Origin: an uncultured Elusimicrobia bacterium
Lineage (GTDB): Bacteria > Elusimicrobiota > Elusimicrobia > 2-01-FULL-59-12
Reading direction: 5' to 3'
DNA: 64,000 nt
Assembly (NCBI GenBank): GCA_963702895.1
Contig: OY969767.1
Span: 2,272,001-2,336,000, forward strand
In this document: positions 14,653-34,784 of the stretch, in pieces
Position numbering within the stretch: position 1 is the first letter of the stretch
Layout of the letters: every line of letters begins with the position of its first letter
Program-made: the position numbers and the translations under genes
Notes under the pieces: model-generated
The model's input: the letters and a program-made list of their open reading frames with translations, nothing else
What the model was told of the DNA's origin: nothing
Databases searched by the model: none

Positions 14653-14682
14653 GCGGACCTACACATAGGGCGATGCTCGTTA

Positions 14683-16120
<1,438 letters not shown>

Positions 16121-16131
16121 TATAAGCGCTG

Positions 16132-17610
16132 TTACTCTTGAATGAGTTTTGTTCCGATTTTTTCGAGTTCTTTGAGTTTCCGCGGCGAGTCCGACTCCAG
16201 ATACAGGCGAACCACAGGCTCCGTCCCGGAAAGCCGAACTCCCATCCAGCTCTCATCCTGAAACACAAATTTGAAGCCGTCCATACGGACGATTTTTTTC
16301 ACGGAGAGGCCCTCGATCTCATTGGGGGTAAAGGTCTCAAACCGTTTGCGCACCCCTTGCATGGTGTCCGTGGATAAGTGGAGGTTCACGCGCTTAGAAT
16401 AATAGGGACCGACCCTGGCTCGGAGCTCCTTCAAAATCTCGCGGAAAGGCTTCCTTTCAAGCGCTCGCACTTCGGCCATGAGCAGACAGGCCAGCACTCC
16501 ATCTTTTTCAGGGACATGCCCGCGGATGGTCAGGCCGCCGGACTCTTCGCCTCCCATCAGAAAGCCGCCGGCCAGCATCGCTTCGGCTATGTACTTAAAG
16601 CCAACGGGAGTCTCTTTGAGCTCAAGGCCAAAGTGCCGGGCCACGGCATCGAGAAAATGGGAGGTCATGACGCTTCGTACGACCAGGCCTTTCCAACGCC
16701 TGGTTTTGACCAAATGCTGAAGGACAATCGGCAAGATTTCGTTGGGCGAAAGGAGTGTGCCGTCCTCGTCCATCACCCCAAAACGGTCCGCGTCGCCATC
16801 GGTGCCAAAGCCCGCGACGAGTTTCTCCTTTTTCATCACGCGAACCATTTCCGCGAGCTGTTCCTGGGCGGGTTCAGGGGGACGGCCGCCAAAGTTGACG
16901 TCACGCCAGTCGTGCAGGACCACCGTCCGGCAGCCGGCCGCTTTCAAAAAGGCATCCAGATACCCCTGCCCAGTGCCGTAAAGGACGTCCGCGGCGACCT
17001 TCAGTTTGGCTTTTTTAAGCAAGGAGACGTCGATGATGTTCTTCAGCCGCGCCAAATAGGCTGGGCGCGGGTCCAAGAGTCGTATCGGGGTAACGGGGTA
17101 ACGGGGTAACGGAGTTGAGCCTTGGTGTGACTCCGATACTCCGGTACTCCGATACTCCGTTACCGAATTGGCGAGGCGTTCAATCTCGTGGGTCACCTCC
17201 GGAGAGGACGGGGCGCCATTGGCCATATTGAATTTAATGCCGTTGTACTCGGCCGGGTTGTGGCTGGCCGTGAAATTAATGCCGCCCGCCGCTTTTTGAT
17301 GGATCACCTGGAAGGACACGACAGGCGTCGGAACGGGATCTTTGGACAAGAGCACCGGAAACCCATAGGACGAAACGATGTCCGCGGACATCTTGGCGAG
17401 CTCCGGAGAGAGGAAGCGTGTGTCGTAACCGATCACGACTGGCGAATCGGCGATTCCCCGGTTCCCCGATTCGCCGGTTCCCTGGTTCGATCCATCACGC
17501 TGATTGGAAAGGTGCTGACTGATCGCATGCACGACGCGACGGACATTCTCGAAGGTAAACTCTTCCGCGATGACCGCGCGCCAGCCGGAGGTTCCAAAAC
17601 GAATGCTCAT
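16132..17610 (-). CDS. Phosphoglucomutase/phosphomannomutase family protein (two repeat-derived insertions)
   Basis: FGTSGWR, TASHNP, DGDADR, GGEESGG, R.SGTEP. Confidence 0.95.
   Translation of the reverse strand: MSIRFGTSGWRAVIAEEFTFENVRRVVHAISQHLSNQRDGSNQGTGESGNRGIADSPVVIGYDTRFLSPELAKMSADIVSSYGFPVLLSKDPVPTPVVSFQVIHQKAAGGINFTASHNPAEYNGIKFNMANGAPSSPEVTHEIERLANSVTEYRSTGVSESHQGSTPLPRYPVTPIRLLDPRPAYLARLKNIIDVSLLKKAKLKVAADVLYGTGQGYLDAFLKAAGCRTVVLHDWRDVNFGGRPPEPAQEQLAEMVRVMKKEKLVAGFGTDGDADRFGVMDEDGTLLSPNEILPIVLQHLVKTRRWKGLVVRSVMTSHFLDAVARHFGLELKETPVGFKYIAEAMLAGGFLMGGEESGGLTIRGHVPEKDGVLACLLMAEVRALERKPFREILKELRARVGPYYSKRVNLHLSTDTMQGVRKRFETFTPNEIEGLSVKKIVRMDGFKFVFQDESWMGVRLSGTEPVVRLYLESDSPRKLKELEKIGTKLIQE
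17083..17165. repeat. Inverted 8-bp arrays (GGTAACGG)n/(TACTCCGR)n in-frame in PGM
   Basis: Encodes VTEYRSTGVSESHQGSTPLPRYPVTPIR. Confidence 0.85.
17441..17490. repeat. 8-bp array (GAATCGGC/CCGGTTCC type) in-frame in PGM
   Basis: Encodes NQGTGESGNRGIADSP before VVIGYDTR; same unit as the rlmB array. Confidence 0.8.
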
Positions 17611-17987
17611 GGGTTTTTCCTGCCTAAGATTTGGGTCACGACTTTGATCACGTCCTTCGCTTGAAAGGGCTTGATCAGATAATCCTGCGCGCCGAGGGCC
17701 AGGGCCTTCCCCCAGGCGGCCTCCTCCCCGTAGACGCTCATCATGAGCGAAGGCAGCGAGAGATGGTTTTCTTTGAGCTTTTCCAAGAGCTCAAGCCCCC
17801 CGAGGCGCGGCATCACCCTGTCGGTAATGAGCAGGTCAGGTTTTCGTTTTTGGATCACGTCCAGCGCCGCGAGCCCGTCAGCGGCTTCCCACACCTCAAA
17901 ACCGGCCTCGGTCAGGATGTCCCGGAGGAAGGTGCGGCTGTTGAGTTCGTCTTCCGCGATGAGAACCGTCTTTTTTAATTCTGCCAC
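17607..17987 (-). CDS. Single-domain response regulator (receiver only)
   Basis: VLIAEDE, PDLLITD..MP..GGLE, YLIKPF; GTG start at 17987 inferred. Confidence 0.9.
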   Translation of the reverse strand: MAELKKTVLIAEDELNSRTFLRDILTEAGFEVWEAADGLAALDVIQKRKPDLLITDRVMPRLGGLELLEKLKENHLSLPSLMMSVYGEEAAWGKALALGAQDYLIKPFQAKDVIKVVTQILGRKNP

Positions 17988-20479
17988 TGCTTCACTTTCA
18001 GAGCGTATTCCTTTAAGAGCGAGCGGGCCTGCGCGTTGTCTGCGGACTCCGCCCAAACATGAAAGGTCGCCTCATCGGGGTCCGGCAGGAGCAACACCCA
18101 GCCGCCCTCGACAAATATTTTGACGCCATCCACCAATTCGTGCGAGCACTTTTCCACGGCCTCAATGGCTTTCCTCATCACGAGCCCCTTTTTGTCCCAG
18201 GGACAAGGGACTTTTTGGTGCAGCGTTTCAAAGGCCGGTATTTCTTTTTCCAGAGCGCTCAAGCTCACCTCGTGGCGCGCGAGCAGCTCGGCAATTTTAG
18301 CAATCGCAAACATCGCGTCAAAGCAAGGCTGAAATTCCGGGAAGATGAAGCCGCCAATACCATCGCCGACCAAATCCATGCCTTTCTCGCGGCTCGCGTC
18401 CATAATATAGCGAGGCGCTGTCCGCAGACGCTGCACGCTGGCGTGGCTGGGTTCCGCCAGGCGCTCCAGGACGCTGGAGAGATTCACCGGAACACCCAGG
18501 CGCACTCCTTTGCGGGTCATCATCATGAGCTTGGCGGCCATAAAAAGCGCCAACTCATTGGGGATGCGTTTGCCTTTATCATCAACGAGAAAGATCTTTT
18601 CGGCCCCCGTATCGACCAGGAAACCGGCGTCCGCCTGGAGCGTGAGGACAATCGTGGAGAGACGGTCGAGGGACGATTGAAATTCTTCCGTCGTTTTGGT
18701 CACCCGTTGGGCACTGAGGTAAGCGTTTAAACTGATGACCTCAATGCCCAGGCGGCCCAAAATGTCCGGCAGGATCATGGAGGCCGATGAGAAGGCGTAG
18801 TCGATCGCGATTTTAAGCTTGGTTTTTTGAAAAATGGTGGCGTCGATCGCCTTCAAAAATCCGGAGCGGTAGTATTGCTGGGCCTGGGGCGGCGTGATGA
18901 TCTCCCCGACCCGGTCAGGCGTGGCCCTCTGGAAATCTTCGCGCAGGAAAAGCTGCTCGATCGAGCGTTCCTGGCCGCTGGAAAGGTCCACGCCCGTCCG
19001 GTCCAGCAGCTTGATGTCCACCAAATGGGGGTCGAAGGGAGATTGCCGAACGTGGATGCCGCCGACTTCCCCCTCCTGTCCCATTTCATAACGCACCACC
19101 GGTATAGGCGAGGTGCGCAAATCCCCCACTTTGACCCCCGTGGACAATAAGCCTGAAATGATCGCCCGTTTGATCATGCGGCTGGCCATATGCGCGTCGC
19201 GGGAGGTGATGACGTAAGCGCCCTGTCCCAAATAGGCGCCATAGGCGGCGCCAATCCGGGTGGCGAGCTCCGGCGTGATCTCGCGGTTGCAGAGCCCCGT
19301 AATGCCGTAGGCCCCAAAGAGACGCCTCGACCACACGTCCCCCCAGACGAGGCTCGTGGAAAGAACGGCCCCGTCTTCAATGCGCTTGTTGGGCCAGACT
19401 TTGACGTTGGCATGGACCGACGACGCGTGGCCAATCTCACAGTCATCGCCCACAATGGCCCCTTCGCCGAGATGCGATTTTTCCGCCAGTCGCGTATGCG
19501 AGCCGACCACCGCCTCTTGGAGCGTCGCGTCCTGCCCCACCTCGACATTGTCCCAAAGGACGCAGCCGGTCAGGTCCGCGCCAGCCCGGATTTTCACCCC
19601 AGGTCCCAGAACGCAGTTCGTGAGTTTCACGCGCTCTTCGATCCGGCAGCCGTCGCCCAGGAGGTTCACGCCTTCGAGCAACGCCTTCGGGCTAATGGAA
19701 CAGCCCGTCCCGATATGCGTGCTGTTGCCTCGCTTGCCTGACTTGACTTTACGTCCGGGGAACGGGATTTTGACCAGTTGCTCGAGAATTTCCACATGGG
19801 CGAGGCGATACTCCATGAGGTCTCCCACGTCTTTCCAATAGCCTTCGGCGATATGGCCGTAAAGGGCCGCCTTCGTTTCGAGAAGCAGCGGAAAAAGGTT
19901 CTTGGAGAAATCAAAGTTTCGGTCGGAGGGGATATCGCGCAGCACGGAGGGCTCCAAGAGATAAATGCCGGTGTTGATCGTGTCGGAGAAGACTTCGCCC
20001 CAGGAAGGCTTCTCGAGGAAGCGCTGGATTCGGCCCTGCTCATTGACGATCACCACCCCATAGGCCAGGGGGTTCGACGAACGGGTCAAGACGAGGGTGG
20101 CCGCCGCTTGGTTCTTGCGGTGGCACGCGAGCGCCGCCTTGAGGTCAAAATCGGTCAACAGATCACCGGAGATGACGAGAAACGTATCGGTCAGATACTT
20201 CTCCGCGAATTTCACGCAACCCGCCGTGCCCAGGTCAGACTGAGGGCGGAGATATTCGATTTTGACGCCAAAGGCGGCCCCATCCCCAAAGTGCCGAATG
20301 ATCACTTCCGGCTGGTAATAGAGCATGACCAAGAGTTCATTAAAACCGTTGTCCTTGAGGAGGTGCACAATGTGCTCCATCATGGGCTTGTTCGCCATGG
20401 GGACCATCGGCTTGGGGATATTGACGGTGAGCGGCCGCAGCCGCGTACCGAAACCACCCGCCATGATGATTGCGCGCAT
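17975..20479 (-). CDS. Mannose-1-phosphate guanylyltransferase / phosphomannomutase-like fusion
   Basis: MAGGFGTRLRPLT..PKP NTP-transferase, hexapeptide LbH region, degenerate PMM domains. Confidence 0.92.
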   Translation of the reverse strand: MRAIIMAGGFGTRLRPLTVNIPKPMVPMANKPMMEHIVHLLKDNGFNELLVMLYYQPEVIIRHFGDGAAFGVKIEYLRPQSDLGTAGCVKFAEKYLTDTFLVISGDLLTDFDLKAALACHRKNQAAATLVLTRSSNPLAYGVVIVNEQGRIQRFLEKPSWGEVFSDTINTGIYLLEPSVLRDIPSDRNFDFSKNLFPLLLETKAALYGHIAEGYWKDVGDLMEYRLAHVEILEQLVKIPFPGRKVKSGKRGNSTHIGTGCSISPKALLEGVNLLGDGCRIEERVKLTNCVLGPGVKIRAGADLTGCVLWDNVEVGQDATLQEAVVGSHTRLAEKSHLGEGAIVGDDCEIGHASSVHANVKVWPNKRIEDGAVLSTSLVWGDVWSRRLFGAYGITGLCNREITPELATRIGAAYGAYLGQGAYVITSRDAHMASRMIKRAIISGLLSTGVKVGDLRTSPIPVVRYEMGQEGEVGGIHVRQSPFDPHLVDIKLLDRTGVDLSSGQERSIEQLFLREDFQRATPDRVGEIITPPQAQQYYRSGFLKAIDATIFQKTKLKIAIDYAFSSASMILPDILGRLGIEVISLNAYLSAQRVTKTTEEFQSSLDRLSTIVLTLQADAGFLVDTGAEKIFLVDDKGKRIPNELALFMAAKLMMMTRKGVRLGVPVNLSSVLERLAEPSHASVQRLRTAPRYIMDASREKGMDLVGDGIGGFIFPEFQPCFDAMFAIAKIAELLARHEVSLSALEKEIPAFETLHQKVPCPWDKKGLVMRKAIEAVEKCSHELVDGVKIFVEGGWVLLLPDPDEATFHVWAESADNAQARSLLKEYALKVKQWQN

Positions 20480-23196: not shown

Positions 23197-25854
23197 CTAT
23201 TTCGAGGTGTAAGCCGATTTGCCTTTGGACTTGCCTTCGATCACCGCTTGTGCAGCGGCCAACCGGGCGATCGGCACCCGGTAGGGCGAGCAGGAGACGT
23301 AGTTCAAGCCCGTGCGGTGACAGAACTTCACCGAGGCGGGATCGCCCCCATGTTCGCCACAGATGCCGCACTTGAGGTCTTTCTTCACCTTGCGGCCCTT
23401 TTGAACCGACATCTGCATCAGCTGGCCGACGCCGCTTTGGTCCAGCGTCTGGAACGGATCATCCTTAAAGATCTTCTTGTCCAGATAGACCTTGATGAAC
23501 TTGCCCGCGTCATCGCGCGAAAATCCCAGCGCCATTTGCGTGAGGTCGTTGGTCCCGAAGCTGAAGAAGTCCGCTTCCTGGGCGATCTCGTCGGCCGTCA
23601 AGGCCGCGCGCGGGACTTCGATCATCGTCCCCACCATGTACTGGAGCTTCACGCCCGCTTCTTTGATTGTTTCTTCGGCGACGCGAACAATGATCTCTTT
23701 TTGATCGCGGAGTTCGCTGACGTTGCCCACCAGTGGAATCATGATCTCGGGAACGACTTTGATCTTTTCGGCGGCGAGCTCGCAGGCCGCGCTGATGATG
23801 GCCTTGGTCTGCATTTCGGTGATTTCGGGATACGTGATGCCCAAACGGCACCCGCGGTGACCGAGCATCGGGTTGAACTCATGGAGCTCCTGCGCGGCCT
23901 GCATGATCTTGGAAGTCGGCACACCGATTTTCTTGGAAAGGATGTCCGCATCCGCCTGCGTCTTCGGCAGGAACTCGTGCAGCGGCGGATCGATCAAGCG
24001 GATCGTGACGGGGTACCCTTTCATTTCCCGGAAAAGACCTTTGAAGTCCTCCTTTTGGAACGGAAGGAGTTTGGCGAGCGCCACTTTTCGCGCTTCCACG
24101 TCCGTGGCCACGATCATTTCCTGCATGAAGGGCAGGCGATCTTCGGCAAAGAACATGTGCTCCGTCCGGCAAAGCCCAATGCCCTGCGCGCCGAACTCGC
24201 GGGCGACTTTGGCGTCGCGCGGAATATCGGCGTTGGCGCGGACTCTGAGCACGCGAAGGGCGTCCGCCCATCCCATAAAGATGCCGAACTCTCCTGAGAT
24301 GGTGGGTTCGATCAAGGGAGCAGAACCCATGATGACGCGGCCGGTGGAGCCATCGATCGTGATCCATTCGTTTTCTTTGACGGTCGTGCCATTCGCGCTG
24401 AATTGTTTGTTCTGTTCGGAAACGCGGATCTCTTCGCAGCCTGCAACGCAGGATTTGCCCATGCCGCGGGCGACCACGGCCGCATGAGAAGTCATGCCAC
24501 CGCGCGCCGTGAGGATCCCCTGGGCGGCATCCATGCCGTGGATATCGTCGGGGTTGGTTTCCTGGCGGACGAGAATGACTTTCTCGCCTTTGCCGCCGCG
24601 CTCGGCCGCGGTGTCGGCGTCAAAAACCGCCTGGCCGGTGGCCGCGCCGGGAGAAGCCGGCAGACCCTTGGCGATCACCTTGAGCGCCGCTTTGGGATCG
24701 ATGACGGGATGCAGGAGTTGGTCGAGCTGCTCCGGCTCCACGCGCATGAGCGCTTCGTCTTTGGAAATGAGCTTTTCTTTCACCATATCGACAGCGATTT
24801 TGACGGCGGCTGCCGCCGTGCGCTTGCCGGTCCGGGTTTGCAGCATGAAGAGACGGCCCTTTTCGATGGTGAACTCAAAGTCCTGCACGTCCCGGTAGTG
24901 TTTCTCGAGGCGCGTCGTGATCTCACGAAGCTGCTTGTAAACGACTGGCATATCCTCGCCGAGCTTGACAATGGGTTTGGGCGTGCGGATCCCAGCAACC
25001 ACATCTTCCCCTTGAGCGTTGGTGAGATATTCCCCGTAGAACTCTTTTGTGCCGGTGGAGGGATTGCGGGTAAAGCCCACGCCCGTACCTGAGTCATCAC
25101 CCATATTGCCGAAGACCATGGACTGGACATTGACGGCTGTCCCTAAATCTTCAGAGATTTTATTTTGCTTGCGGTAGTAGATCGCGCGGGGGTTGTTCCA
25201 AGACTTGAAGACCGCATTGCGCGCGCCTTCCACCTGCTTCCAGGGGTCCTGGGGGAACGCCTCGCCGCACTTCGCCTGATAAACGTCCTTGAACTTCGCC
25301 ACAATGTCCCGGAGGTCCTTCACATTGAGATCCGTATCCAGCTTGACGCCGCGCTTCTGTTTCTGGGATTCGAGGAGATGCTCAAACTCGCTCTTTTCAA
25401 TACCCCCCACCACGTTGCCGTACATGGCGATAAAACGGCGATAGGCGTCCCACGCGAAGCGCGGGTTGGACGTGAGGCGGGAGAGTCCTTCCACCACCTG
25501 GTCGTTGATGCCAAGGTTCAAGATCGTGTCCATCATGCCGGGCATGGAAAACTTCGCGCCGGAGCGGACGGAGACGAGCAGCGGATTGTCCGCGTTGCCA
25601 AAGCCCTTGTCCATGATCTTCTGGAGCTTTTCCATGGCGGCTTTTTGCTGGGCTTCGAGCTCCTTGGGGAGCCTCTGTTTATTGGCGTAGTAGTAGCGGC
25701 AAACATCCGTCGTGATAGTAAATCCAGCGGGGACGGGGACCCCGGCGTTGGTCATTTCGGCAAGACCCGCTCCTTTGCCGCCTAACAAATCTTTCATCGT
25801 GCCTTTGCCGTCAGCACGGCCTGCGCCAAAGAAATAAACATACTTCGTAGCCAT
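23197..25854 (-). CDS. ppdK: Pyruvate, phosphate dikinase
   Basis: LLGGKGAGLAEM, SVRSGA..SMPGMMDT, GGMTSHAAVVARG, GLCRTEHMF, SFGTNDLTQ. Confidence 0.99.
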   Translation of the reverse strand: MATKYVYFFGAGRADGKGTMKDLLGGKGAGLAEMTNAGVPVPAGFTITTDVCRYYYANKQRLPKELEAQQKAAMEKLQKIMDKGFGNADNPLLVSVRSGAKFSMPGMMDTILNLGINDQVVEGLSRLTSNPRFAWDAYRRFIAMYGNVVGGIEKSEFEHLLESQKQKRGVKLDTDLNVKDLRDIVAKFKDVYQAKCGEAFPQDPWKQVEGARNAVFKSWNNPRAIYYRKQNKISEDLGTAVNVQSMVFGNMGDDSGTGVGFTRNPSTGTKEFYGEYLTNAQGEDVVAGIRTPKPIVKLGEDMPVVYKQLREITTRLEKHYRDVQDFEFTIEKGRLFMLQTRTGKRTAAAAVKIAVDMVKEKLISKDEALMRVEPEQLDQLLHPVIDPKAALKVIAKGLPASPGAATGQAVFDADTAAERGGKGEKVILVRQETNPDDIHGMDAAQGILTARGGMTSHAAVVARGMGKSCVAGCEEIRVSEQNKQFSANGTTVKENEWITIDGSTGRVIMGSAPLIEPTISGEFGIFMGWADALRVLRVRANADIPRDAKVAREFGAQGIGLCRTEHMFFAEDRLPFMQEMIVATDVEARKVALAKLLPFQKEDFKGLFREMKGYPVTIRLIDPPLHEFLPKTQADADILSKKIGVPTSKIMQAAQELHEFNPMLGHRGCRLGITYPEITEMQTKAIISAACELAAEKIKVVPEIMIPLVGNVSELRDQKEIIVRVAEETIKEAGVKLQYMVGTMIEVPRAALTADEIAQEADFFSFGTNDLTQMALGFSRDDAGKFIKVYLDKKIFKDDPFQTLDQSGVGQLMQMSVQKGRKVKKDLKCGICGEHGGDPASVKFCHRTGLNYVSCSPYRVPIARLAAAQAVIEGKSKGKSAYTSK

Positions 25855-25940
25855 GGATAATCTCCTTTATGTGATTCAGGTTGCTGTTCGATCAGGGCGT
25901 TCGGAATGCCTGAGGCAACGAAGGGGATTTTACAATATCA

Positions 25941-26026
25941 GGGGACGTTCCATCACAAACGTCACAAACTCCAGAAAGCCAAGAACAAGACGTTGGAGTT
26001 TGTGACGTTTGTGATGGAACGTCCCC
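25941..26026. repeat. Long perfect palindrome, GGGGACGTTCC...GGAACGTCCCC family
   Basis: 33-bp perfect arms; near-identical copy at 55084. Confidence 0.92.
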
Positions 26027-26031
26027 TGGAT

Positions 26032-26883
26032 TTATTCGTCTTGGACTTGGACGGGCACGGGCAGCGCCTCGTCAATGGCAGGTTCTTCCTCGACCGCCTC
26101 CGCCCCTTGCTCCTCGGGCGCGTCTGCGGTTGAGGGCGCGTCTGCGGTTGAGGGCGCGTCTGCGGTTGAGGGCGCGTCTGCGGGCGCGGTCGCTTCGACG
26201 ACGGTGGAGTTTTGGGCTGCTCGCTCGGGCGAGACGTCTTCTTTGTTGTCCTTGTTGAAGTTGGGCGGCTTGTTCTTCACAAAGAAGACGACACGGCGAT
26301 TTTTGGCGCGATTTTCATCGCTGTCATTGGCGACCAGCGGATGGAATTCCCCATAACCAATAGCCGCCATATGAGCGGGCGGCATGCCGAGGCCGCGAAT
26401 CATGTACTGCACAACGCGCGTCGCCCGCGCGGCGGAGAGCTCCCAGTTGGAAGAGAAATGGGCGTTGTGGATGGGAATATTGTCCGTATGCCCTTCCACC
26501 ACGATATCATGATCTTCTTTGGCAAGCTTCAGAAGAGACGGCGTGATTTTCGACAGGATCTCCTTCATCCGGGGGGAAAGATCCGCGGACCCGCTTCCAA
26601 AAAAAATGTTTTCACCGCTTTCTTGAAGCGTGATTTGCATTCCTTCTTTGGTCACTTTGACCTCGGTCGCCACACCCTCTTGCTGCATGGCGACGGAGAC
26701 ATCCTTTTTGATCTGCTGGATGTCCTTGCTCAGGGCCGCCGAGAGCGCATAGAGAATAATGAAAAAGCACACGAGCTCCGTCATGAGATCGGCGTAATTG
26801 ACGAGCCACGGAGGAGCGGGATGGCCGATCTGCGACACCCTCGGGTCGTGAATCGAAATCATGTTTTTCAGTTTTTTGGCCAT
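26032..26883 (-). CDS. motB: MotB-family stator subunit (TM + OmpA-like peptidoglycan-binding domain)
   Basis: WLVNYADLMT..VCFF (conserved Asp), VEGHTD, SNWELS..RA, NRRV; 18-bp repeat tail (ADAPST) at 26116-26183. Confidence 0.95.
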   Translation of the reverse strand: MAKKLKNMISIHDPRVSQIGHPAPPWLVNYADLMTELVCFFIILYALSAALSKDIQQIKKDVSVAMQQEGVATEVKVTKEGMQITLQESGENIFFGSGSADLSPRMKEILSKITPSLLKLAKEDHDIVVEGHTDNIPIHNAHFSSNWELSAARATRVVQYMIRGLGMPPAHMAAIGYGEFHPLVANDSDENRAKNRRVVFFVKNKPPNFNKDNKEDVSPERAAQNSTVVEATAPADAPSTADAPSTADAPSTADAPEEQGAEAVEEEPAIDEALPVPVQVQDE

Positions 26884-26905
26884 GGCGTTTCCTCGGCGCC
26901 TTCCC

Positions 26906-27685
26906 CTAGGCGGCCTTCTGGATCAGGGCGCGTTTCGAGGGTTCCAGATAAGCCTTCAAATTGGCCTCCATGATGGAGGGGCTCACACCGCTTTGCAGAA
27001 GAAGCACTCCCCGAATAATGATTTCCTTGATCAGGAGCTCCTCTTCCGATCGGCGGCGAAGCTTACCGGCCATGGGGAGGAAGAGCATGTAGCCGGAGCC
27101 CAAACCGAAAAAGGCGGCGGCCAGACACAGCGCCATCCGGCGCGGAACTTCTTCGACATTGGAAATCGTGTTGAGCATGAGGATCATCCCCAGAACGGTG
27201 CCGATAATCCCAAAAGCCGGACTATAGGTTCCCAGCGAATTGAAAATCTCTTGCCCCACCTGATGGCGCTCACGAATAAAGCCGAGCTCCGTCTCCATCA
27301 TGTTGCGGATAAATTCCTGGTCTGATCCATCGATCACCAGCTGCACGCCACGCTTAAGAAAGTCATTTTTGAGGAGCTTGACGTCGCCTTCGAGCGCCAA
27401 AAATCCTTCGGTACGGCCCTTCTTGGCAAAGTTCACAAAGGTCGTGACGATTTCGGAGGTGTCCTCGCCGCTGGCGGCCATCACTTTTTTGAGAACCCTA
27501 AAGAGACCGAAGACTTGCCCAATGGGATAATTGACCAGAATCGCACAAAAGGTCCCTCCCATCACAATGAGAAAGGCCTCATAGTTGAGAAATGGCTTAA
27601 AACCCGCGACGCCCTCCCCCAAAAAGACGGAGATAATCACGAGCCCAGCTCCCACCACAATTCCTAACAGTGTCGCGATGTCCAT
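26906..27685 (-). CDS. motA: MotA-family stator subunit
   Basis: MDIATLLG, IVMGGT, R.EGFLALE, PAFGIIGTVLG, FLPMAGKL. Confidence 0.95.
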   Translation of the reverse strand: MDIATLLGIVVGAGLVIISVFLGEGVAGFKPFLNYEAFLIVMGGTFCAILVNYPIGQVFGLFRVLKKVMAASGEDTSEIVTTFVNFAKKGRTEGFLALEGDVKLLKNDFLKRGVQLVIDGSDQEFIRNMMETELGFIRERHQVGQEIFNSLGTYSPAFGIIGTVLGMILMLNTISNVEEVPRRMALCLAAAFFGLGSGYMLFLPMAGKLRRRSEEELLIKEIIIRGVLLLQSGVSPSIMEANLKAYLEPSKRALIQKAA

Positions 27686-27812
27686 CTCAACCTCCCGGAA
27701 TCAGGGACGCGTCACGGTCGATGAAGGACGAGACATGCGCTGCCTGTTCCTATCGTCTCACTCACCTTCATGGCCCTCTTGTCCCTTATCTCTTTTCTCT
27801 CATCTCACTCTT

Positions 27813-27983
27813 TTAGGCGGCTTTACGTCTTGGGCTGACGATTCTTTTCCTTATGGTTCTGCCGTGCCTGCTGCGCGTTTCATGGACGACCCTCTGGGGC
27901 TTCGCGTCTTCCATCAAGAATCCAATCACAAGGCAAAGAAATCCCACGAGAATCCCCGTCATGGCAATCAGTGTTAGCGACAT
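27813..27983 (-). CDS. 56-aa single-TM peptide, absent from the ORF track
   Basis: AAAGGAG RBS 6 nt before ATG; overlaps flbD stop; MSLTLIAMTGILVGFLCLVIGFLMEDAKPQRVVHETRSRHGRTIRKRIVSPRRKAA. Confidence 0.65.
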   Translation of the reverse strand: MSLTLIAMTGILVGFLCLVIGFLMEDAKPQRVVHETRSRHGRTIRKRIVSPRRKAA

Positions 27984-28219
27984 GGTGTACTCCTTTCGGA
28001 TTCCCCCCGCAAATACTGGGGAAGGTACGTCGATCCCGCAAAGACCGTCTTCTTGTATTCGATCGCTTTCTGGACCACTTCCGTCACTGGCTCACGAACA
28101 ACAATTTTGTTCCCTGTCGCCATGGCGAGCACCGTTTCGATGCCATGGCTTTCGATGGACTCGATCAGCTCGGCGTTCACCACCGTTTCCTGGCCGTTGA
28201 GTCGGTGGAGTTTAATCAT
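27974..28219 (-). CDS. FlbD/SwrD family protein
   Basis: MIKLHRLNG....VNAELIESIE...ETVL.M.TG.KIVV.E; ATGA overlap with upstream gene; typical position before motAB. Confidence 0.88.
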   Translation of the reverse strand: MIKLHRLNGQETVVNAELIESIESHGIETVLAMATGNKIVVREPVTEVVQKAIEYKKTVFAGSTYLPQYLRGESERSTPCR

Positions 28220-30126
28220 GCGGCCGCTCCCGATTGCAGCTTCCACTGCTCAAACCAGCTCTTGAGCGACGGGTCTTTATTGATCTCACACATTCTTTCG
28301 TAGGCCCCGGCGGCCTCGTTGACCATGCCCTGGGCCGCGTAAGAACTCCCCAAATACTGATAGGCCTGCCAATGGTCAGGCTGGGCCTGGATGGCCTCAT
28401 GAAAGCTGCGAATGGCTTCCGCCAAGAGGCCCTGCGCGAAGAAGGCGGTGCCCGCTTGGAATCTCGCCTCCGCCTCGGCGGGATCCACCTTGGCTGGAGG
28501 GGGGGCGGCTTTGCCAAGACTCAAATGCAGAGGCTCCGTATCATCAGCCGCCTCCTCGCCTTCGAGGATGCCCATCTTTTGTTTCTTGCGGATGCTGATT
28601 TTGTTTTCTTTTTCGAGCTTGGTGATGATGTCCATGAGCTTTTTACGCTCATCCTCAATCTGCTCCATGGAAAGCGGTCGGCCATAATCCATGGATTCCT
28701 TGAGCAGTGCGGCGGCGCCCGCCGACATATTGTTGAAGAACTTGTTGATGTAATCCACCGGCGCTTCGCGCAGCGCCCGCGCGAGCTGCTCCGTACCGAT
28801 TTCGCGAACGATGCCCTGGACCGCCTGGTCCGGGAATTTGAGAATGTCCTCAAAGAGGATGACTTCTTCTCGGACGCGCTCATAGAGCTGCGGTTTCTCA
28901 TTGCGGAGGTAATCCAGAATATTTTCCCGGGTGGTCTTATCAGCCTCATTGAGGATCTTCACGAGGTTTTCAATGCCGCCTAAGACGAAATCGACTTTTT
29001 TCTTAACGTATTCATCGATCGACATCACCTGTTCCAGGGAGGTTTGGCGGATGGTGGCCGTCTCCACAGCGACGCGCGCCTGAAGCTCCGGTGGAAACGA
29101 GGAAAAGATCTCTTTGGCGAACTCCGGTTTGAGGTACGACAGGACGAGCGACACGATCCACGGTTCTTCCTTACGAAGGAGGTAGGCCAGCCCTTTGAGA
29201 TTTTGTTCCGAAACATATTTGAACGGCTCAAACTTTTTCATGGCTGCCTCCTCCTCCTCTAACTTCTGCTGTTCTTCTTCGGTGAGCACCCCATCCCCTT
29301 CTCCGCTGCCCCCTCCTCCACCCCCTTCTTGCTTACCTTCATTTTCATTGGCCATCTCCTGTTCGCTTTCCTCTTTCATCGTGGTCATCTGCTCAATGCG
29401 TTGCGTCTTGTCTTCGAGGGCGGCGTTGAGCCGGCGGAAAAAGCTTGCCAGAGGCCCCCAGAGGAAGAGTAAGAGCCACAAGGTCAGGGCGATGGGAATG
29501 ATCCATTTGGGCGCGAGCAATTGCTGCCAGGCCGTCTCGCTAAAGGTCGTGGGGGTGAAGACCATCTGATTTTCCGTGACTTTCAGAAGCGCGATGATGG
29601 CTTGCTTGACTGCCAGAAGCTTATCTCCAGGAACTTTGTTGTCATAGAGCACCGTCACCAGCAGTTTTTTGATGGTCGTCCGGACTTCGACGCGCTTCTG
29701 AAGCATTTGCCCTCCGGATTCTTGAGAGGAGCCGCCACGATCCTCCTCCTGCTGAAACGGAGACTTGGGCATGGGAACGCCAGGGACAAGGACTTTGGCT
29801 TGCGGGAGGGGCAGGGCTTCGCCCGTGTCTGTCTCGCTCTTTTTTTTGTCGCTCTTTTTCTTTTCCATCCCCAATTCAGAGGCCCGCGATTCAAGACCCA
29901 TCTCCACATCCACGATCACGACCGCTTTTCCCGGGCCTAAGATTTTGTCCAGGACGTTTTCCTGCAGGTATTCCGTCTTTTCCTTCTCAAATTTGGATTC
30001 TTGCTCGAGGAGCATCATATCGGGGGAGAGCCCGGAGGACGCCGCTGGCGAGGCCGACTGCCCCACGGCCGCCCAGACGATCCCGCTGGTCAGCAGGAAC
30101 GATGCAAAAAGTAAATGGATTCGCAT
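28216..30126 (-). CDS. FliF(ring)-FliG fusion rotor-like protein with C-terminal TPR
   Basis: Signal peptide; LDKILGPGKAVVIVDVEM and IKKLLVTVLYD (FliF RBM3-like); TM; FliG-M (EEPWIVSLVLSYL), GG linker, FliG-C (FEDI...NMS..AA.LLKE); TPR helices. Start 30126 or 30165. Confidence 0.8.
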   Translation of the reverse strand: MRIHLLFASFLLTSGIVWAAVGQSASPAASSGLSPDMMLLEQESKFEKEKTEYLQENVLDKILGPGKAVVIVDVEMGLESRASELGMEKKKSDKKKSETDTGEALPLPQAKVLVPGVPMPKSPFQQEEDRGGSSQESGGQMLQKRVEVRTTIKKLLVTVLYDNKVPGDKLLAVKQAIIALLKVTENQMVFTPTTFSETAWQQLLAPKWIIPIALTLWLLLFLWGPLASFFRRLNAALEDKTQRIEQMTTMKEESEQEMANENEGKQEGGGGGGSGEGDGVLTEEEQQKLEEEEAAMKKFEPFKYVSEQNLKGLAYLLRKEEPWIVSLVLSYLKPEFAKEIFSSFPPELQARVAVETATIRQTSLEQVMSIDEYVKKKVDFVLGGIENLVKILNEADKTTRENILDYLRNEKPQLYERVREEVILFEDILKFPDQAVQGIVREIGTEQLARALREAPVDYINKFFNNMSAGAAALLKESMDYGRPLSMEQIEDERKKLMDIITKLEKENKISIRKKQKMGILEGEEAADDTEPLHLSLGKAAPPPAKVDPAEAEARFQAGTAFFAQGLLAEAIRSFHEAIQAQPDHWQAYQYLGSSYAAQGMVNEAAGAYERMCEINKDPSLKSWFEQWKLQSGAAA

Positions 30127-30251
30127 TCTTGTGACAAGTCTAGCCTGCCCCTTTGGGAGTTTCAATGACGTAAAGAAAGTTTTACAGCTAAAAACGAGCT
30201 GTTAAGTAGACGTGTTTTTATGGGTCTAGAAGTGCAGCTGGGTTGGCGAGA

Positions 30252-30551
30252 TTAACCGTATTTGTAAGACACGCCGAAACCGCCACGCGGCGGCTCCCAT
30301 GCGATGTTATTGAAAGGGCAGAGCATGCGCGCCGCTCCGCATTCAATACAGTTTTCGTAGGCGAGGATGATCTTCTGCTTGTCCTGGTCCCAGGTGTAGA
30401 CCCCGGCGGGGCAAGCGCTCACGCAGGGCTTGTTGGGACATCCAAGGCAGACCTGCGGGTCGATAATCTTGATGTGGGTTTGGTGATCGTTCTTATACGT
30501 GAGAAGCCCTAATTTGGCTTCAAGCGTCATGGGTTTTGGATTTTCTGCCAT
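30252..30551 (-). CDS. fixX: FixX-type ferredoxin
   Basis: C..C..KPC..ACPAGVY, CIECGA...CP, W.PPRGGFGV.YKYG. Confidence 0.92.
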   Translation of the reverse strand: MAENPKPMTLEAKLGLLTYKNDHQTHIKIIDPQVCLGCPNKPCVSACPAGVYTWDQDKQKIILAYENCIECGAARMLCPFNNIAWEPPRGGFGVSYKYG

Positions 30552-30552
30552 C

Positions 30553-31848
30553 TTAGCCAATCGCCTTTCTAAGACTCAGCGCGTCCTTCACCATACGGAA
30601 GAGCCCACGTTCCTTGCGGAAGAGGCGGAAAATGCGCCGCTGGTGGTCCCGCTTGGGATGGCCGTCGACAAGAAAATATTCTTTGGCCGCCTCCGTGACC
30701 AAGCGCGGATAGACGGTGAGCATATCGCGGTTTTCACGCACTTTTTCTTCGATGTCCTTGTGGTCTTTCATATCAATGAGGACAAAGGAGCGGTCCAGTT
30801 TTTTGCGGTAGAGCGAAAGCATCTTGGAAGTGAAATCATTTTTTTTCTTCGCTTCGATGGCTGTTTCGGCCGCCAACTTCCCGGCAGCCATGGCAAGGTT
30901 GGAGCCTTCCCGGTGTGTGGGGTTGATCATTTGCGCGGCATCCCCAGCGATGAGCATCCCATCCGTATACAAGGGAGGCATGACGTTGTAGCCCCCTTCC
31001 GGAATCAGATGGGCCGAGTATTCCAGAGGCGTGGCGCCCTGGAGATAGCGTCGCAGGAGCGGATGACGTTTGAGTTCCTCAAGCAAGTCATAAGGTTTGA
31101 TGTTCGTTTTTTGAAAATCGTCCAGGGCGCACCCGATCCCTAAGGAGATGGATTCTTTGTTGGTATACATGAAAGCGTATCCCAGCATGCCCTTGGTGAT
31201 ATCCCCGACCATCTCGAAGGTCGAACCCTGATCCCCTTCGAGGCAGAAGCGGTCTTCGATCTTCTCCCGCGCCAGTCCCAGGACTTCCTTCACGGCAAGG
31301 GCCACTTCCGTCGGCTTCCATTCGCGCGCAAGTCCCGCTTTTTGGGCGAGGATCGAATTCACCCCATCGCAAGCGATGACCACGCTTCCGTAGAGCTCAT
31401 CGCCTTCGGTGGATTTCACTCCGACCACCGCGCCTTCTTTCTTGAGGACGTCCTGAATCGTGACGCCGGTCAGAAGAGTGACACCCGCTTCCTCCGCTTT
31501 CTTGGAATACCACCGGTCAAACTCGGTACGGATAATGGTGTAGCTGTTGGCGGGCGGCTGGTCATAATCGGCGGACTTATAAGCCACTTGAAGGCTTGAG
31601 GTGGCGGTCATGACCATCGCGCGCTCTTCGATGATGGCCCGCTCCAGGGGGCAGTCCTTCCAGAATTCAGGAATGACATCGGCGAGCATCTTGGAGTAGA
31701 GAACAGCCCCTTGGACATTTTTAGCCCCAGGATAGTCCCCTCGCTCAAGGAGCGCAACGGAGAGCCCGCCTCGGGCCGCCGTGATGGCAGCGGAAACCCC
31801 TGCGGGCCCCGCTCCTACAACGATACAGTCAAAGTTGTCGTCTGCCAT
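30553..31848 (-). CDS. fixC: FixC-type FAD-dependent ETF:quinone oxidoreductase
   Basis: VVGAGPAG, ERGDYPGAKN, EYSAHLIPEGG, GDAA, EGSNLAM. Confidence 0.92.
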   Translation of the reverse strand: MADDNFDCIVVGAGPAGVSAAITAARGGLSVALLERGDYPGAKNVQGAVLYSKMLADVIPEFWKDCPLERAIIEERAMVMTATSSLQVAYKSADYDQPPANSYTIIRTEFDRWYSKKAEEAGVTLLTGVTIQDVLKKEGAVVGVKSTEGDELYGSVVIACDGVNSILAQKAGLAREWKPTEVALAVKEVLGLAREKIEDRFCLEGDQGSTFEMVGDITKGMLGYAFMYTNKESISLGIGCALDDFQKTNIKPYDLLEELKRHPLLRRYLQGATPLEYSAHLIPEGGYNVMPPLYTDGMLIAGDAAQMINPTHREGSNLAMAAGKLAAETAIEAKKKNDFTSKMLSLYRKKLDRSFVLIDMKDHKDIEEKVRENRDMLTVYPRLVTEAAKEYFLVDGHPKRDHQRRIFRLFRKERGLFRMVKDALSLRKAIG

Positions 31849-32822: not shown

Positions 32823-34784
32823 TCAAGCTGAAATCCACTCCCAGGCGGAATGGTGAGCCTCGCAGCGTTCGGCGTATTCCAGAAACCGGGCGTAAAAGGG
32901 GTGACGGGCGAGCGTCGTGGAATCTCCCAGAACAATTAAAAGGCGGCGGGCGCGGGTCATGCCGACATTCATCCGACGCGTGTCTCCTAAAAAACCAACT
33001 TCTCCTTTGTCGTTGGAGCGAACGAGCGATAAGATAATGGCTTCTTTTTCCCTCCCCTGGTAACCGTCTATGGATCCAATTTCTATCCCCTCCTCCATCC
33101 CGGCCAACTGCCGCAAGAGCCGGGCCTGAGCGACGTAGGGGGTCAGAAGCGCCATCGATTTGGCTGGCACCCCTGAGCCGCGAAGTTCTTGATAGAGAGA
33201 CAACGCCAAGCGTGCTTCTCCTTCATTCTCTCGACTTTCCAAGAGCTCGTTCCAGGTTTCGTCATAGCCCGCGCCCGCGGTATCGATGAACATCAGGGGT
33301 TTCGACGTGAGGGTCGAGGGGGTAATGCCGGGCAATTCTTCGATGGTGTGATCGCGCACAGACTCGTCCGCCACGAGTTTCCCCTCATAGAGCTGTTGCG
33401 AAGGAAAACCCATGATCGTCTCGTGCATCCGGTATTGCACCCGAAGCAACGTCTGAACCTCTCGGGGGACAAGGCCCTGCAGACGTTCAAAGAGCGTGAG
33501 GCCCAGTCCTTGCTTTTTGGCCTCCTCCGAGTAGATGGTGGGCGGCAGCTGCAGGGAATCCCCCGCAAAGACAACCTTCTTCGCTTGCGTGATGGGGATC
33601 CAGGAGAGCGGTTCGGTGGCTTGCGAGGCTTCATCCATAATCAGGAGATCAAAAGGCTTCTTGGAGAGCGTCTTCGCAAGGCCCCCATGGGTGACGAGCA
33701 CCACATCCGCCGAAGCCACGATCCCTTTGCCGATGCCGTATTCCATATCACGCGCTTCCTGCCAGAGCGCGTTGATCTCTTTTTGCAGGGCGTGACGCTC
33801 ATCCCAACTGAGCCGGCGATCATGCGCGCGCTGGAGCTGCCGAACGAGATGCGCCCGCTGGACGTCCAACTCATCGATGAATTTTTGGTCCGGATGTTCA
33901 GCGACCTGGGCCGAGAGCGTCGCGTGCCGCAAGGAGTCGAGGATGCGGGCGGGGTGGCCCATTCGCACAACCTTAAGATCCGTGTCGAGCAGTTTCTCGA
34001 GCATGTTGTCGACCGCGATGTTCGAAGGGGCGGAGGCGAGGACCCGAGCCCCTCCCGCGATCGCATGACGGATGATTTCCACCAAAACCGTGGTTTTCCC
34101 TGTCCCGGGGGGACCATGCACGAGGGCGACGTCATGGGCGGCCAGGGCTTTCGCGACGGCTTCGCGCTGATACTGATTAAGCTTCTGGTTGAAGTATGTG
34201 CCCTCACCCGCACCAGCAGTTCGCCCTCTCCCGCCTTCGGCGGGAGAGGGTGGGGGTGAGGGCAAATCAAAAGTTGCGGGTTCGGCCCCCATGAAGATTT
34301 CTCTTAAGTGTGCGACTTCCTTCTTCTGAGCATGCTGGACGCTCGCGAGCACCTTCTTCATGCGCTTGTAGGTGGCCTCACTGCCCAGAACGTCCAGCTG
34401 GCATTTCCCTTGTGGCGGGGTCTCGAGGGCGGGAAGGCCCTCCAGCGCGACCGTGATCTCAAATTGGTCGACGTCATAGAGCGTCCCCTTGAACTTGGGC
34501 ACTTCAGGATCCTGGAAAGAGAGACTGACCAGATCTCCCTGGTTGAGTGCCTGAAACGGGGAATACTCCTCCCCATGGGAGGGCCGGGAGAGCACCCAGA
34601 GGACGTGGCTGCCGACGCCGTAGTCCTCGCGTGTGATCACGAGGCGGGTCACGGTCTTGCCCAGCGCCTCGCGTGCTTGCACGGGGAGCTTCTCCAGTTT
34701 TCTCTCGTTTTCCGAGCGCTCGGCTTCCCGTTCGATATCGATGAGCCTCAGAAGCTTTTCAAAATGTTCATCGTGCACGACCAT
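32823..34784 (-). CDS. SF1B helicase, Upf1/IGHMBP2/DNA2-NAM7 family
   Basis: LNQYQ, HGPPGTGKT, SNIAVDN, DEASQ, GD..QLPPT, QYRMH, DGYQGREKE, RRMNVGMTRAR. Confidence 0.93.
   Translation of the reverse strand: MVVHDEHFEKLLRLIDIEREAERSENERKLEKLPVQAREALGKTVTRLVITREDYGVGSHVLWVLSRPSHGEEYSPFQALNQGDLVSLSFQDPEVPKFKGTLYDVDQFEITVALEGLPALETPPQGKCQLDVLGSEATYKRMKKVLASVQHAQKKEVAHLREIFMGAEPATFDLPSPPPSPAEGGRGRTAGAGEGTYFNQKLNQYQREAVAKALAAHDVALVHGPPGTGKTTVLVEIIRHAIAGGARVLASAPSNIAVDNMLEKLLDTDLKVVRMGHPARILDSLRHATLSAQVAEHPDQKFIDELDVQRAHLVRQLQRAHDRRLSWDERHALQKEINALWQEARDMEYGIGKGIVASADVVLVTHGGLAKTLSKKPFDLLIMDEASQATEPLSWIPITQAKKVVFAGDSLQLPPTIYSEEAKKQGLGLTLFERLQGLVPREVQTLLRVQYRMHETIMGFPSQQLYEGKLVADESVRDHTIEELPGITPSTLTSKPLMFIDTAGAGYDETWNELLESRENEGEARLALSLYQELRGSGVPAKSMALLTPYVAQARLLRQLAGMEEGIEIGSIDGYQGREKEAIILSLVRSNDKGEVGFLGDTRRMNVGMTRARRLLIVLGDSTTLARHPFYARFLEYAERCEAHHSAWEWISA
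34200..34263. repeat. CCCTCACCC-family palindrome in-frame in helicase
   Basis: Encodes [21 protein letters not shown] just before the Q motif. Confidence 0.85.

Follow-up and report, generated by a model that had tools for sequence, protein, structure and literature searches.

To our knowledge, the flagellar rotor (FliF/FliG) is known only within flagella; relatives of the flagellar stator have been re-used often (Tol, Ton, type IX secretion (T9SS), Agl and Zorya), whereas we know of no such re-use of the rotor. In Myxococcus, the Agl-Glt gliding machinery employs MotAB-like stators without a flagellum, together with envelope-spanning proteins and a long cytoplasmic coiled-coil protein; we know of no FliG or FliF domain in it. 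Here we describe an operon in a 64,000-nucleotide stretch of DNA from an uncultured Elusimicrobia bacterium (assembly GCA_963702895.1, contig OY969767.1, positions 2,272,001 to 2,336,000; hereafter the window), whose first gene joins a FliF-type RBM3/beta-collar domain to the middle and C-terminal domains of FliG in one polypeptide. The presence of this fusion with its own MotA/MotB stator in a bacterium devoid of a flagellum hints at an ion-driven cell-envelope machine that has not been described before.

Engineered FliF-FliG fusions of Vibrio and Salmonella form rings, as stated in passages of the respective reports (PDB 8z4d/8z4g; PMC11481574, PMC10941966). The T9SS and gliding apparatus of Bacteroidota comprises the GldLM/PorLM motor, the PorV shuttle, the SprA translocon and cargo carrying a C-terminal domain (CTD), as outlined in parts of PMC8986121 and PMC9127263. 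For free-living Elusimicrobiota without flagellar structural genes, passages of a preprint report 'numerous homologues' of motAB, flbD and fliG, whose role is described as unclear or enigmatic, and treat flbD as a transcription factor (bioRxiv 10.1101/2022.07.08.499144). In the passages of the preprint on FliG, Elusimicrobia, MotA and gliding, neither a FliF part, nor a fusion, nor PorV-like neighbours are mentioned; the orphan motAB, flbD and fliG genes of the phylum have already been remarked there, and the fusion has not. In the literature search, supplements aside, neither a natural FliF(RBM3)-FliG fusion nor its link to PorV-like genes was found to be described. The words Elusimicrobi, fusion and non-flagellated are absent from the searched text of a survey of MotAB evolution (PMC12505986), and term searches of PMC13277936 and PMC11257099 found no mention of the fusion.

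Domain architecture of the FliF-FliG fusion

Five co-oriented open reading frames (ORFs), all on the minus strand (window 26032-30165), encode in order the FliF-FliG fusion, FlbD, a 56-residue peptide with a transmembrane (TM) segment, MotA and MotB. A first-pass annotation, made from the letters of the window without database searches, had placed five such genes between fixX and ppdK; all five are found there, and the flanking genes match FixX (E 9e-13), FixC (E 6e-105) and pyruvate phosphate dikinase (TIGR01828, 1402.6 bits). The fusion is arranged as signal peptide or TM1, FliF RBM3/beta-collar, TM2, acidic/Gly linker, FliG_M, FliG_C and TPR. Its database copy (P0001) is an identical protein of 636 amino acids (aa) that starts 13 codons after the TTG, at the ATG at 30126. 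The gene and its domains are as follows.

28216..30126, minus strand: rotor gene (fusion), 636 aa from the ATG at 30126; the ORF at 28216-30165 has 649 aa from the TTG at 30165.
30058..30126, minus strand: N-terminal hydrophobic segment, signal peptide or TM1; ORF residues 14-36, hydropathy windows >1.5.
29512..30027, minus strand: predicted periplasmic FliF-like RBM3 with beta-collar hairpin and disordered insert; ORF residues 47-218, from AlphaFold2 (AF2), Foldseek and VIA-align.
29437..29511, minus strand: TM2 helix; ORF residues 219-243, from hydropathy.
28990..29190, minus strand: FliG middle domain; ORF residues 326-392, Pfam FliG_M E 7e-16.
28591..28911, minus strand: FliG C-terminal (torque) domain; ORF residues 419-525, Pfam FliG_C E 8.5e-27.
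28267..28473, minus strand: C-terminal cytoplasmic TPR repeats; ORF residues 565-633, Pfam TPR_2, TPR_16 and TPR_1.

The peptide motifs quoted in the earlier annotation, as well as the hydrophobic N-terminus, the single later TM segment and the acidic/Gly linker, are all present in the translation. The FliG_M and FliG_C part matches Thermotoga maritima FliG (1lkv) at E 8.8e-40 over both domains, and the TIGR00207 fliG profile reaches 140.6 bits against a cut-off of 226.7, aligned over profile positions 92-330 only. The sole FliG_N match (E 0.01) is placed over FliG_M, and the FliG_N domain is absent. Likewise, RBM1/2 (YscJ_FliF, PF01514) gives no match in the fusion at E<=1 and none genome-wide, and only about 45 residues lie ahead of the RBM3 helix. 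The loss of RBM1/2 and FliG_N that had been suggested from the sequence is borne out by these searches. A 69-residue acidic/Gly linker joins TM2 directly to FliG_M, leaving no free C-tail of the kind that binds FliG_N.

TM2 forms a helix (173-206, with a predicted local distance difference test score (pLDDT) >90) in the AF2 model, and all 75 sequences share its G-P. The FliG_C helix N-M-S-A-G-A-A-A-L-L-K-E ranks with the best-conserved segments of the fusion. The TPR tail is present in the 29 main-type sequences of alignment A1 and is missing from a 502-aa paralogue encoded elsewhere in the genome.

Fold of the periplasmic domain

The Pfam family YscJ_FliF_C matches the window fusion at E 0.68 (10.8 bits) as a whole protein and at E 0.052 (14.4 bits) when the domain is searched alone. 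In alignment A2, which comprises 75 sequences of the RBM3 domain from relatives, 44/75 N-terminal domains scanned singly match this family at E<=0.1, the best at 1.3e-6. When the A2 profile was compared with PDB sequences, FliF (9ydx, 9yh6 and 8z5s) and SpoIIIAG (5wc3) were the top four; because this search reached only E 0.16-0.3, evidence from the fold was needed for the RBM3 assignment.

The AF2 model of the periplasmic domain (pLDDT 74.3) consists of a helix, a long strand, a disordered insert, a second long strand, a helix, a strand and the TM helix. Foldseek against the PDB returned FliF RBM3/collar or SpoIIIAG structures at all of ranks 1-19 (E 5.2e-6 to 3.1e-3, probability at least 0.98), the next match being at E 0.05. 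VIA-align, covering 48,161 chains, gave FliF 8z5v with Z 12.0 and a root-mean-square deviation of 2.0 A over 96 residues, and further matched FliF 6scn (Z 11.2), FliF 8z4d (Z 10.6), SpoIIIAG (Z 9.1) and PrgK (Z 9.0). The modeled structure shows a periplasmic domain folded as FliF RBM3/beta-collar, and the fold proposed in the first-pass annotation is upheld by both structural searches. The disordered insert carries the invariant motif L-P-G-V-P-x-P-K or P-G-(V/I)-P-x-P-K, whose prolines are invariant, and the profile alignment sets P-G-(V/I)-P-x-P-K opposite G-V-P-G of FliF.

Relatives that score higher carry the same combination of domains. Among 1.84 billion representative proteins, the A2 profile matched 447 at E<=1e-3, and 29 of these 447 (20 short, 9 mid-length or long) were scanned with Pfam. 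The YscJ_FliF_C cut-off of 23.8 bits was passed by 4/9 mid-length or long relatives, namely P0214 (46.5), P0226 (40.6), P0210 (34.3) and P0175 (33.7 bits), all of which also contain FliG_M and FliG_C.

Many short proteins of the representative library (P0150-P0258, about 160-240 aa) match the RBM3 profile over most of its length at E 1e-29 to 1e-10. None of the 20/20 short RBM3-profile proteins scanned had a Pfam match at E<=1e-5; such proteins may be genes truncated on short contigs, or ring proteins that stand alone.

Stator and rotor-stator interface

The stator subunits are encoded by the last two genes of the operon.

26906..27685, minus strand: MotA/PomA-type stator A subunit, 259 aa, from phmmer against solved MotA/PomA.
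26032..26883, minus strand: MotB-type stator B subunit, 283 aa, with MotB_plug, a TM segment containing Asp32, an OmpA-like domain and an acidic, repeat-rich tail.

Pfam identifies MotA_ExbB (E 5.7e-25) in the A subunit and MotB_plug (E 6.9e-12) and OmpA (E 1.9e-18) in the B subunit. By phmmer, MotA matches MotA 8ucs/6ysf at E 1.2e-47 and PomA 8bri at E 2.3e-45, while NCBIfam models of TolQ and ExbB reach E 0.05 and 0.17 only; its scores lie under the NCBIfam equivalog cut-offs (217.3 against 394 and 214.8 against 340). MotA R91 and E99 align with the Arg and Glu of solved MotA. In the operons of the family, MotB Asp32 is invariant (50/50 sequences), as are MotA P156, P181 and P204 (53/53), two of which (P156 and P204) we take to be the channel prolines. 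A flagellar-type stator, as first annotated, agrees with both the similarity to solved MotA and these invariant ion-path residues.

In Escherichia coli, the charge pairs of this interface are MotA R90 with FliG D288/D289 and MotA E98 with FliG R281, according to passages of PMC12505986. In the family, MotA position 91 is always basic (K 40 and R 13 of 53), and at the FliG column of the T. maritima Asp (E490 in the fusion), Glu stands in 76/76 sequences. We presume here that the E. coli numbers fall on these columns of the family alignment. At MotA position 99, 44 of the 53 sequences have Q and 9 have E, and FliG position 483, which aligns with the T. maritima Arg, is G in 70, N in 5 and S in 1 of 76 and is never basic. 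At the second acidic position of FliG, S (47), E (20), A (8) and H (1) occur in the 76 sequences. Of the two charge pairs, one thus survives and both partners have lost the other, as is expected of a cognate, co-evolving rotor-stator interface.

The FliM-binding motif of FliG, which we take to be EHPQR, is altered in the fusion, where T. maritima E-H-P-Q aligns with E-E-P-W (E-E-P-W...R); in the family, His is replaced by Glu in 65/76 and Gln by Trp in 65/76 sequences. This replacement fits the lack of FliM/N in the genome. Compared with its closest relative (L007), the fusion has a ratio of nonsynonymous to synonymous substitution rates (dN/dS) of 0.056 over the whole gene and of 0.036 within the FliG part, figures that are rough because synonymous sites are saturated. 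Taken from the alignments, the ion path is intact, the charge pair appears co-evolved and the fusion is under purifying selection.

Host genome

The genome is a single 2.72-Mb contig, 98% complete, and profile searches were controlled in four flagellated genomes. FHIPEP (FlhA), YscJ_FliF, Flagellin_N, FliMN_C and Flg_bb_rod gave 0 matches genome-wide, with positive controls in all four flagellated genomes. The absence of fliM/N, rod, flagellin and export genes, noted earlier for 64 kb, extends to the whole genome, which encodes no export gate and no flagellum.

A second FliG_C match in the genome belongs to the 502-aa protein, which has the same layout without the TPR tail and is followed by a MotA gene. 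Two further loci of the genome bear on the system.

L088 (G000:C1:1828001-1846000) 7246-13116, minus strand: paralogous operon with a 336-aa barrel, a 406-aa TPR+LysM protein, the 502-aa fusion, MotA, two MotB and a kinase.
L087 (G000:C1:14001-34000) 4970-19999, minus strand: partner-gene locus with giant proteins, a 582-aa PorV/TPR protein and two coiled-coil proteins.

In the paralogous operon, the barrel is PorV/FadL/TraF-like, MotA has 269 aa, the MotB genes encode 211 and 242 aa, and the histidine kinase is of the Cache/HAMP/PAS sensor type. The partner locus (chromosome 14-34 kb) is ordered as giant proteins, PorV/TPR protein, a 1609-aa coiled-coil/TPR protein and a 762-aa Pro-rich coiled-coil protein; the fusion and MotAB are absent from it. 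The motor genes have been relocated to the window. The operon had been called stand-alone, a description that does not hold for this genome, in which partners are encoded at another locus and a second, paralogous operon exists.

The genome contains 14 matches to the PorV family (PorV_fam), 9 of them over the cut-off, and an SprA/Sov-like protein of 1811 aa (L093:7972-13407, minus strand, equal to about G000:C1 1185972-1191407; TIGR04189 E 2.5e-50, 170.9 bits against a cut-off of 200). GldL and GldM were not found in the genome, in searches that were uninformative since the control genomes were also silent. The T9SS-like parts of Elusimicrobiota may merit a study of their own. Within the window, a 2556-aa ORF (56273-63943, minus strand) ends in a FlgD-Ig/CTD-like domain (E 1e-4) and is followed by a PorV/PorQ-family barrel (55176-56381, minus strand; NF033709 E 1.3e-53, 182.7 bits). 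This pair (55176-63943), located 25 kb from the motor genes, resembles the pairs that stand beside the fusion in relatives.

Gene neighbourhood in relatives

The neighbourhood was analyzed in 80 loci (the best 80 of 233 relatives), in which ORFs were classed by phmmer with the window proteins and neighbours from L014, L016, L017, L031 and the window's own genome as queries. A PorV-like barrel/TPR gene lies directly upstream of the fusion in 58/67 loci with at least 1.8 kb upstream, and a coiled-coil gene directly downstream in 64/69 loci with at least 1.5 kb downstream; FlbD occupies that place, as in the window, in only 4/69. MotA follows further downstream in 42/51 loci with at least 6.5 kb, and a giant protein with a similar C-terminus is encoded upstream in 16/53 loci. 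The usual operon of the phylum is thus PorV-like barrel/TPR, fusion, giant coiled-coil proteins and FlbD-MotA-MotB.

The product of the upstream gene combines a barrel of the PorV/PorQ family with TPR repeats; the copy in the window's genome scores 93.6 bits with NF033709 (cut-off 90). The downstream proteins, which have no signal peptide and no TM segment, possess either a Pro-rich N-terminus with a long coiled coil or a coiled coil of 580-2100 aa ending in TPR, and these TPR ends resemble the fusion's own tail. The giant upstream proteins end in a domain with a weak match (E 1e-5 to 1e-8) to the sorting domains found at the C-terminus of T9SS substrates.

The order fusion-FlbD-small peptide-MotA of the window is found in 6/7 closest relatives (L007, L008, L009, L011, L012 and L022), and in the seventh, L010, the sequence ends inside the fusion gene; the order FlbD-MotA-MotB is also kept in relatives. 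What had been read as a stand-alone minimal operon is hence the local gene order of this clade, since relatives carry PorV-like and coiled-coil neighbours. The link to surface proteins or secretion that the same reader had suggested, on the other hand, fits these conserved neighbours.

A cyclic di-GMP (c-di-GMP)-I riboswitch is located just upstream of the PorV-like gene in 7/9 relatives scanned (L015, L016, with two in tandem, L017, L023, L025, L031 and L033; 38-82 bits, all over the gathering score) and was not found in L014 and L018. The classes ahead of the PorV/TPR gene are c-di-GMP-I or c-di-GMP-I-GGC. In the window, L087 and L088, no riboswitch reached the gathering score; L087 has a sub-threshold c-di-GMP-I match (13920-14079, 23 bits, E 0.043) in the syntenic place before its PorV-like gene. 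A c-di-GMP riboswitch at the window operon was also considered and rejected, with none found at E<=1 in 29900-30700.

Distribution across Elusimicrobiota

A word-indexed protein search with the fusion gave 242 matches at E<=1e-3; among the matches listed (120 of 242), the Pfam make-up is the same, and the few that are named come from metagenome-assembled genomes of Elusimicrobia/Endomicrobiales. A scan of one genome per species yielded the 233 relatives, of which the best 80 are nearly all from Elusimicrobiota. The phylum sample comprised 301 Elusimicrobiota genomes of 98 genera, in which the fusion was counted by the N-domain profile. It is present in 103/301 genomes and 63/98 genera, nearly absent from two large families with small genomes (f2, 1/88; f14, 0/89), and present in 101/124 genomes outside these two, often in two or three copies each. 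The distribution suggests that the system is characteristic of free-living Elusimicrobiota.

FlhA is found in 6/301 genomes, three of which (G064, G242 and G121) also possess the fusion, so that 100/103 fusion carriers are without FlhA. A canonical FliG of about 340 aa is encoded near FlhA in G064 and G242 alongside the fusions, and G062 and G170 have the canonical FliG only. Since the flagellated G064 and G242 keep a separate canonical FliG, the fusion does not serve as a flagellar rotor. The possibility, raised with the first-pass annotation, that the fusion simply serves a complete flagellum is answered both by these genomes and by the lack of a flagellum in the window's own genome.

Gene junctions and other features of the window

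The two small genes between the fusion and MotA are as follows.

27974..28219, minus strand: FlbD/SwrD-family small protein, 81 aa, from Pfam PF06289 and the ATGA junction.
27813..27983, minus strand: 56-aa single-TM peptide with a basic tail, from the ORF and homologous ORFs in close relatives.

FlbD (PF06289, 73.5 bits against a cut-off of 24.7, E 1e-20) is typically the gene just upstream of motA. Its ORF spans 27974-28246, and M10 is the likeliest start, giving 81 aa, because an ATGA at 28219-28216 joins the stop of the fusion to the FlbD ATG. The ATG of the small peptide overlaps the FlbD stop and is preceded by a GAAAGGAG site; the overlap of the first three genes that had been reported therefore exists at both junctions. 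The later genes are separated by 127 nt (small peptide/MotA) and 22 nt (MotA/MotB), and neither pair overlaps. A promoter and terminator scan of 25700-30700 yielded 3 promoter-like sites (2.5 expected) and 8 terminator-like sites (6.4 expected), and hence no signal.

Homologues of the 56-aa peptide occur in six close relatives only (L007, L008, L009, L011, L012 and L022). Its N-terminal TM segment faintly resembles the first TM segment of MotA (NCBIfam PRK08456, E 0.19, positions 3-32), and the peptide may be what is left of a partly duplicated motA gene. The tail of MotB (26086-26157, minus strand), beyond the OmpA-like domain, contains about four tandem A-D-A-P-S-T units and then an acidic stretch. 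Elsewhere in the window, ORFs of 694 and 990 aa (46892-51845, minus strand) have no NCBIfam match at E<=1e-10, and an IGHMBP2-family helicase (TIGR00376, E 1.7e-149) is encoded at 32823-34784.

Proposed machine and alternative explanations

We propose that the operon probably supplies the motor half of an ion-driven rotor-stator machine, unrelated to flagellar swimming, with the cell envelope as its site of action. The fusion would sit with its RBM3/beta-collar in the periplasm, where RBM3 would build a FliF-like ring in the inner membrane, and this ring would set one FliG_M/FliG_C unit per subunit beneath the membrane, with the covalent join replacing the non-covalent joint of the flagellar FliF tail and FliG_N. 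In the solved structures of FliF and SpoIIIAG, RBM3 alone forms rings; a ring of fusion subunits is suggested because RBM3 builds rings in these proteins and because engineered FliF-FliG fusions form rings. MotA5B2-type stators, aided by FlbD and anchored to peptidoglycan via MotB, would conduct protons or Na+ by the path of MotB Asp32 and push the FliG_C helix. The machine would operate without FliM/FliN switch, export gate and rod. With no rod, gate or switch, torque, or at least force, must go elsewhere than to a filament.

As judged from the operons of relatives, the ring would have three kinds of partner: in the outer membrane, a PorV-family barrel whose TPR arm reaches into the periplasm; at the surface, giant proteins that end in T9SS-like domains; and in the cytoplasm, coiled-coil proteins of great length. 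In many lineages the operon would be under c-di-GMP control. The most likely job of such a machine would be to move, hold or export giant surface adhesins in a gliding- or secretion-like process. That a ring assembles, that it rotates and what load it would act on are inferred, and we can only guess that the invariant PGVPxPK collar loop and the two kinds of TPR are the coupling points. More tentatively, the system could represent a third kind of stator-driven rotary envelope machine, in which a gate-free FliF(RBM3)-FliG ring is turned by MotAB, the collar loops engage the TPR arm of the PorV-like barrel and the TPR tails engage the giant coiled-coil proteins, for c-di-GMP-controlled movement or deployment of adhesins in a new form of gliding or surface remodelling; this full version is possible, yet we hold it to be doubtful. 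The system itself is real, conserved and functional-looking, and the mechanism is plausible.

Several points weigh against a machine of this kind. The YscJ_FliF_C score of the window fusion (14.4/10.8 bits) lies under the Pfam cut-off of 23.8, and the profile-to-PDB E-values of the N-terminal domain are marginal (0.16-0.3), with SpoIIIAG at E 0.23. The Arg of the torque helix is missing, so that force transfer may differ from that in flagella. MotA is not found within the 7-kb flank in 9/51 loci, in several of which very long coiled-coil genes fill much of the flank, and only 16/53 loci have the giant-protein match upstream. In the window, the operon has no detectable riboswitch, and its motor genes stand apart from the PorV-like, coiled-coil and giant-protein genes, so that the proposed load rests on the relatives. 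An SprA-like protein is common in families lacking the fusion, which argues that the fusion is not a general need of the putative translocon.

Among the alternatives, a static envelope-spanning scaffold or sensor survives best, and we regard it as unlikely. Here, a FliF-like ring and FliG would dock and un-plug MotAB with no sustained rotation; the flow of ions, or the anchoring to peptidoglycan, would serve to steady the envelope, to place a complex or to pass on a signal, as in contacts of the Tol-Pal/ExbBD type. The absence of rod, bushing and switch proteins, the lost Arg of the torque helix, the tether-like partners with very long coiled coils and the paralogous operon, with its LysM/TPR protein, two MotB genes and sensor kinase, all speak for such a scaffold. 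The A subunit, however, is far nearer to flagellar MotA/PomA (E 1e-47) than to TolQ/ExbB (E 0.05 and 0.17), and the highly conserved FliG_C helix retains the acidic residue that pairs with the MotA position that is basic in every sequence, which is the signature of a torque interface. Moreover, 5:2 stators are rotary by construction.

Less probable still is a dedicated power unit of T9SS-like secretion, in which the operon would replace GldLM/PorLM and energise an SprA-like translocon rather than move adhesins. The PorV-family matches, the SprA-like protein, the CTD-like ends of the giant proteins and the failure to find GldL/GldM would be in keeping with it; the last of these searches is uninformative because its controls were silent, and the SprA-like score of 170.9 bits stays under the family cut-off of 200 bits. 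SprA-like frames of about 1800 aa are moreover present in 256/301 genomes, including the fusion-poor families f2 (86/88, against 1/88 with the fusion) and f14 (49/89, against 0/89). A role of the fusion as the obligatory motor of an SprA-like translocon, which was considered separately, is weakened by this same spread into families that lack the fusion.

An accessory role in type IV pili or twitching, proposed for the orphan MotAB of the phylum in part of the preprint (bioRxiv 10.1101/2022.07.08.499144), is in our view very unlikely for this operon. The same source points to type IV pilus genes in free-living Elusimicrobiota and to effects of mot mutations on Pseudomonas twitching (bioRxiv 10.1101/2022.07.08.499144, in the passages concerned); no pilus gene, however, is found among the conserved-operon ORFs that were classed in the 80 loci or scanned with Pfam, and the neighbourhood that is conserved encodes PorV-like barrels, coiled-coil proteins and giant surface proteins. 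Lastly, a decaying, functionless remnant of an ancestral flagellum, for which the flagella implied by FlhA in 6/301 genomes and the flbD-motA-motB order, typical of flagellar genes, could be cited, is close to refuted by a dN/dS of about 0.04-0.1, intact frames in 103 genomes and 63 genera, two to three paralogues per genome, invariant ion-path residues, conserved synteny with non-flagellar genes and the separate canonical FliG beside the fusion in flagellated relatives.

The ion-driven rotor-stator machine proposed above is of interest as a natural, phylum-wide fusion under selection that keeps only the ring-building and torque-receiving parts, in flagellum-free bacteria. If the proposal is true, it would offer a compact minimal system for rotor-stator coupling without export apparatus, switch and rod, reveal, in a phylum about which little is known, an unknown envelope machine tied to giant adhesins and PorV-like barrels, and add evidence on how the flagellar motor was put together from modules. 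In its fuller and more tentative form, the proposal would also mean that a rotor-stator core of flagellar type needs no type III secretion system in order to function, a point relevant to the origin of that motor. The fusion may further explain the 'enigmatic' orphan motAB, flbD and fliG of non-flagellated, possibly motile (magnetotactic) Elusimicrobiota, as these are described in passages of bioRxiv 10.1101/2022.07.08.499144.

Comparison with known systems

The T9SS of Bacteroidota resembles the proposed machine in that a 5:2 motor driven by the proton-motive force is linked to PorV-family barrels and giant CTD proteins, and PorV_fam matches, weakly matching CTD-like ends and a distantly SprA-like protein are found here. 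In contrast to the T9SS, the motor parts here are flagellar (MotAB and FliG), not GldLM, the SprA-like match is below its cut-off and its distribution does not track the fusion. SpoIIIAG (5wc3), a component of the sporulation channel, has an RBM3-like ring-building domain with a beta insertion in a non-flagellar setting (Foldseek E 1.7e-3, VIA-align Z 9.1); however, it contains no FliG part, has no stator and ranks below FliF in both structural searches.

The engineered FliF-FliG fusions share the covalent connection of FliF and FliG, and 8z4d is among both the structural and the sequence matches of the fusion. They are laboratory joins of full-length FliF and FliG (945 aa) that act within a flagellum, whereas the natural fusion occurs without RBM1/2, without FliG_N and without a flagellum.

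The flagellar motor core shares with this operon the RBM3/beta-collar fold (here as modeled), FliG_M, FliG_C, MotA, MotB with its plug, Asp32 and OmpA-like domain, and the order flbD-motA-motB. It differs in that FliF and FliG are here one polypeptide with an added TPR tail; RBM1/2, FliG_N, FliM/N, export gate, rod, hook and filament are absent from this genome; and the torque-helix Arg of the fusion and the His and Gln of its EHPQR motif are replaced. The genes that accompany the fusion in relatives encode a PorV-like barrel, coiled-coil proteins and giant surface proteins.

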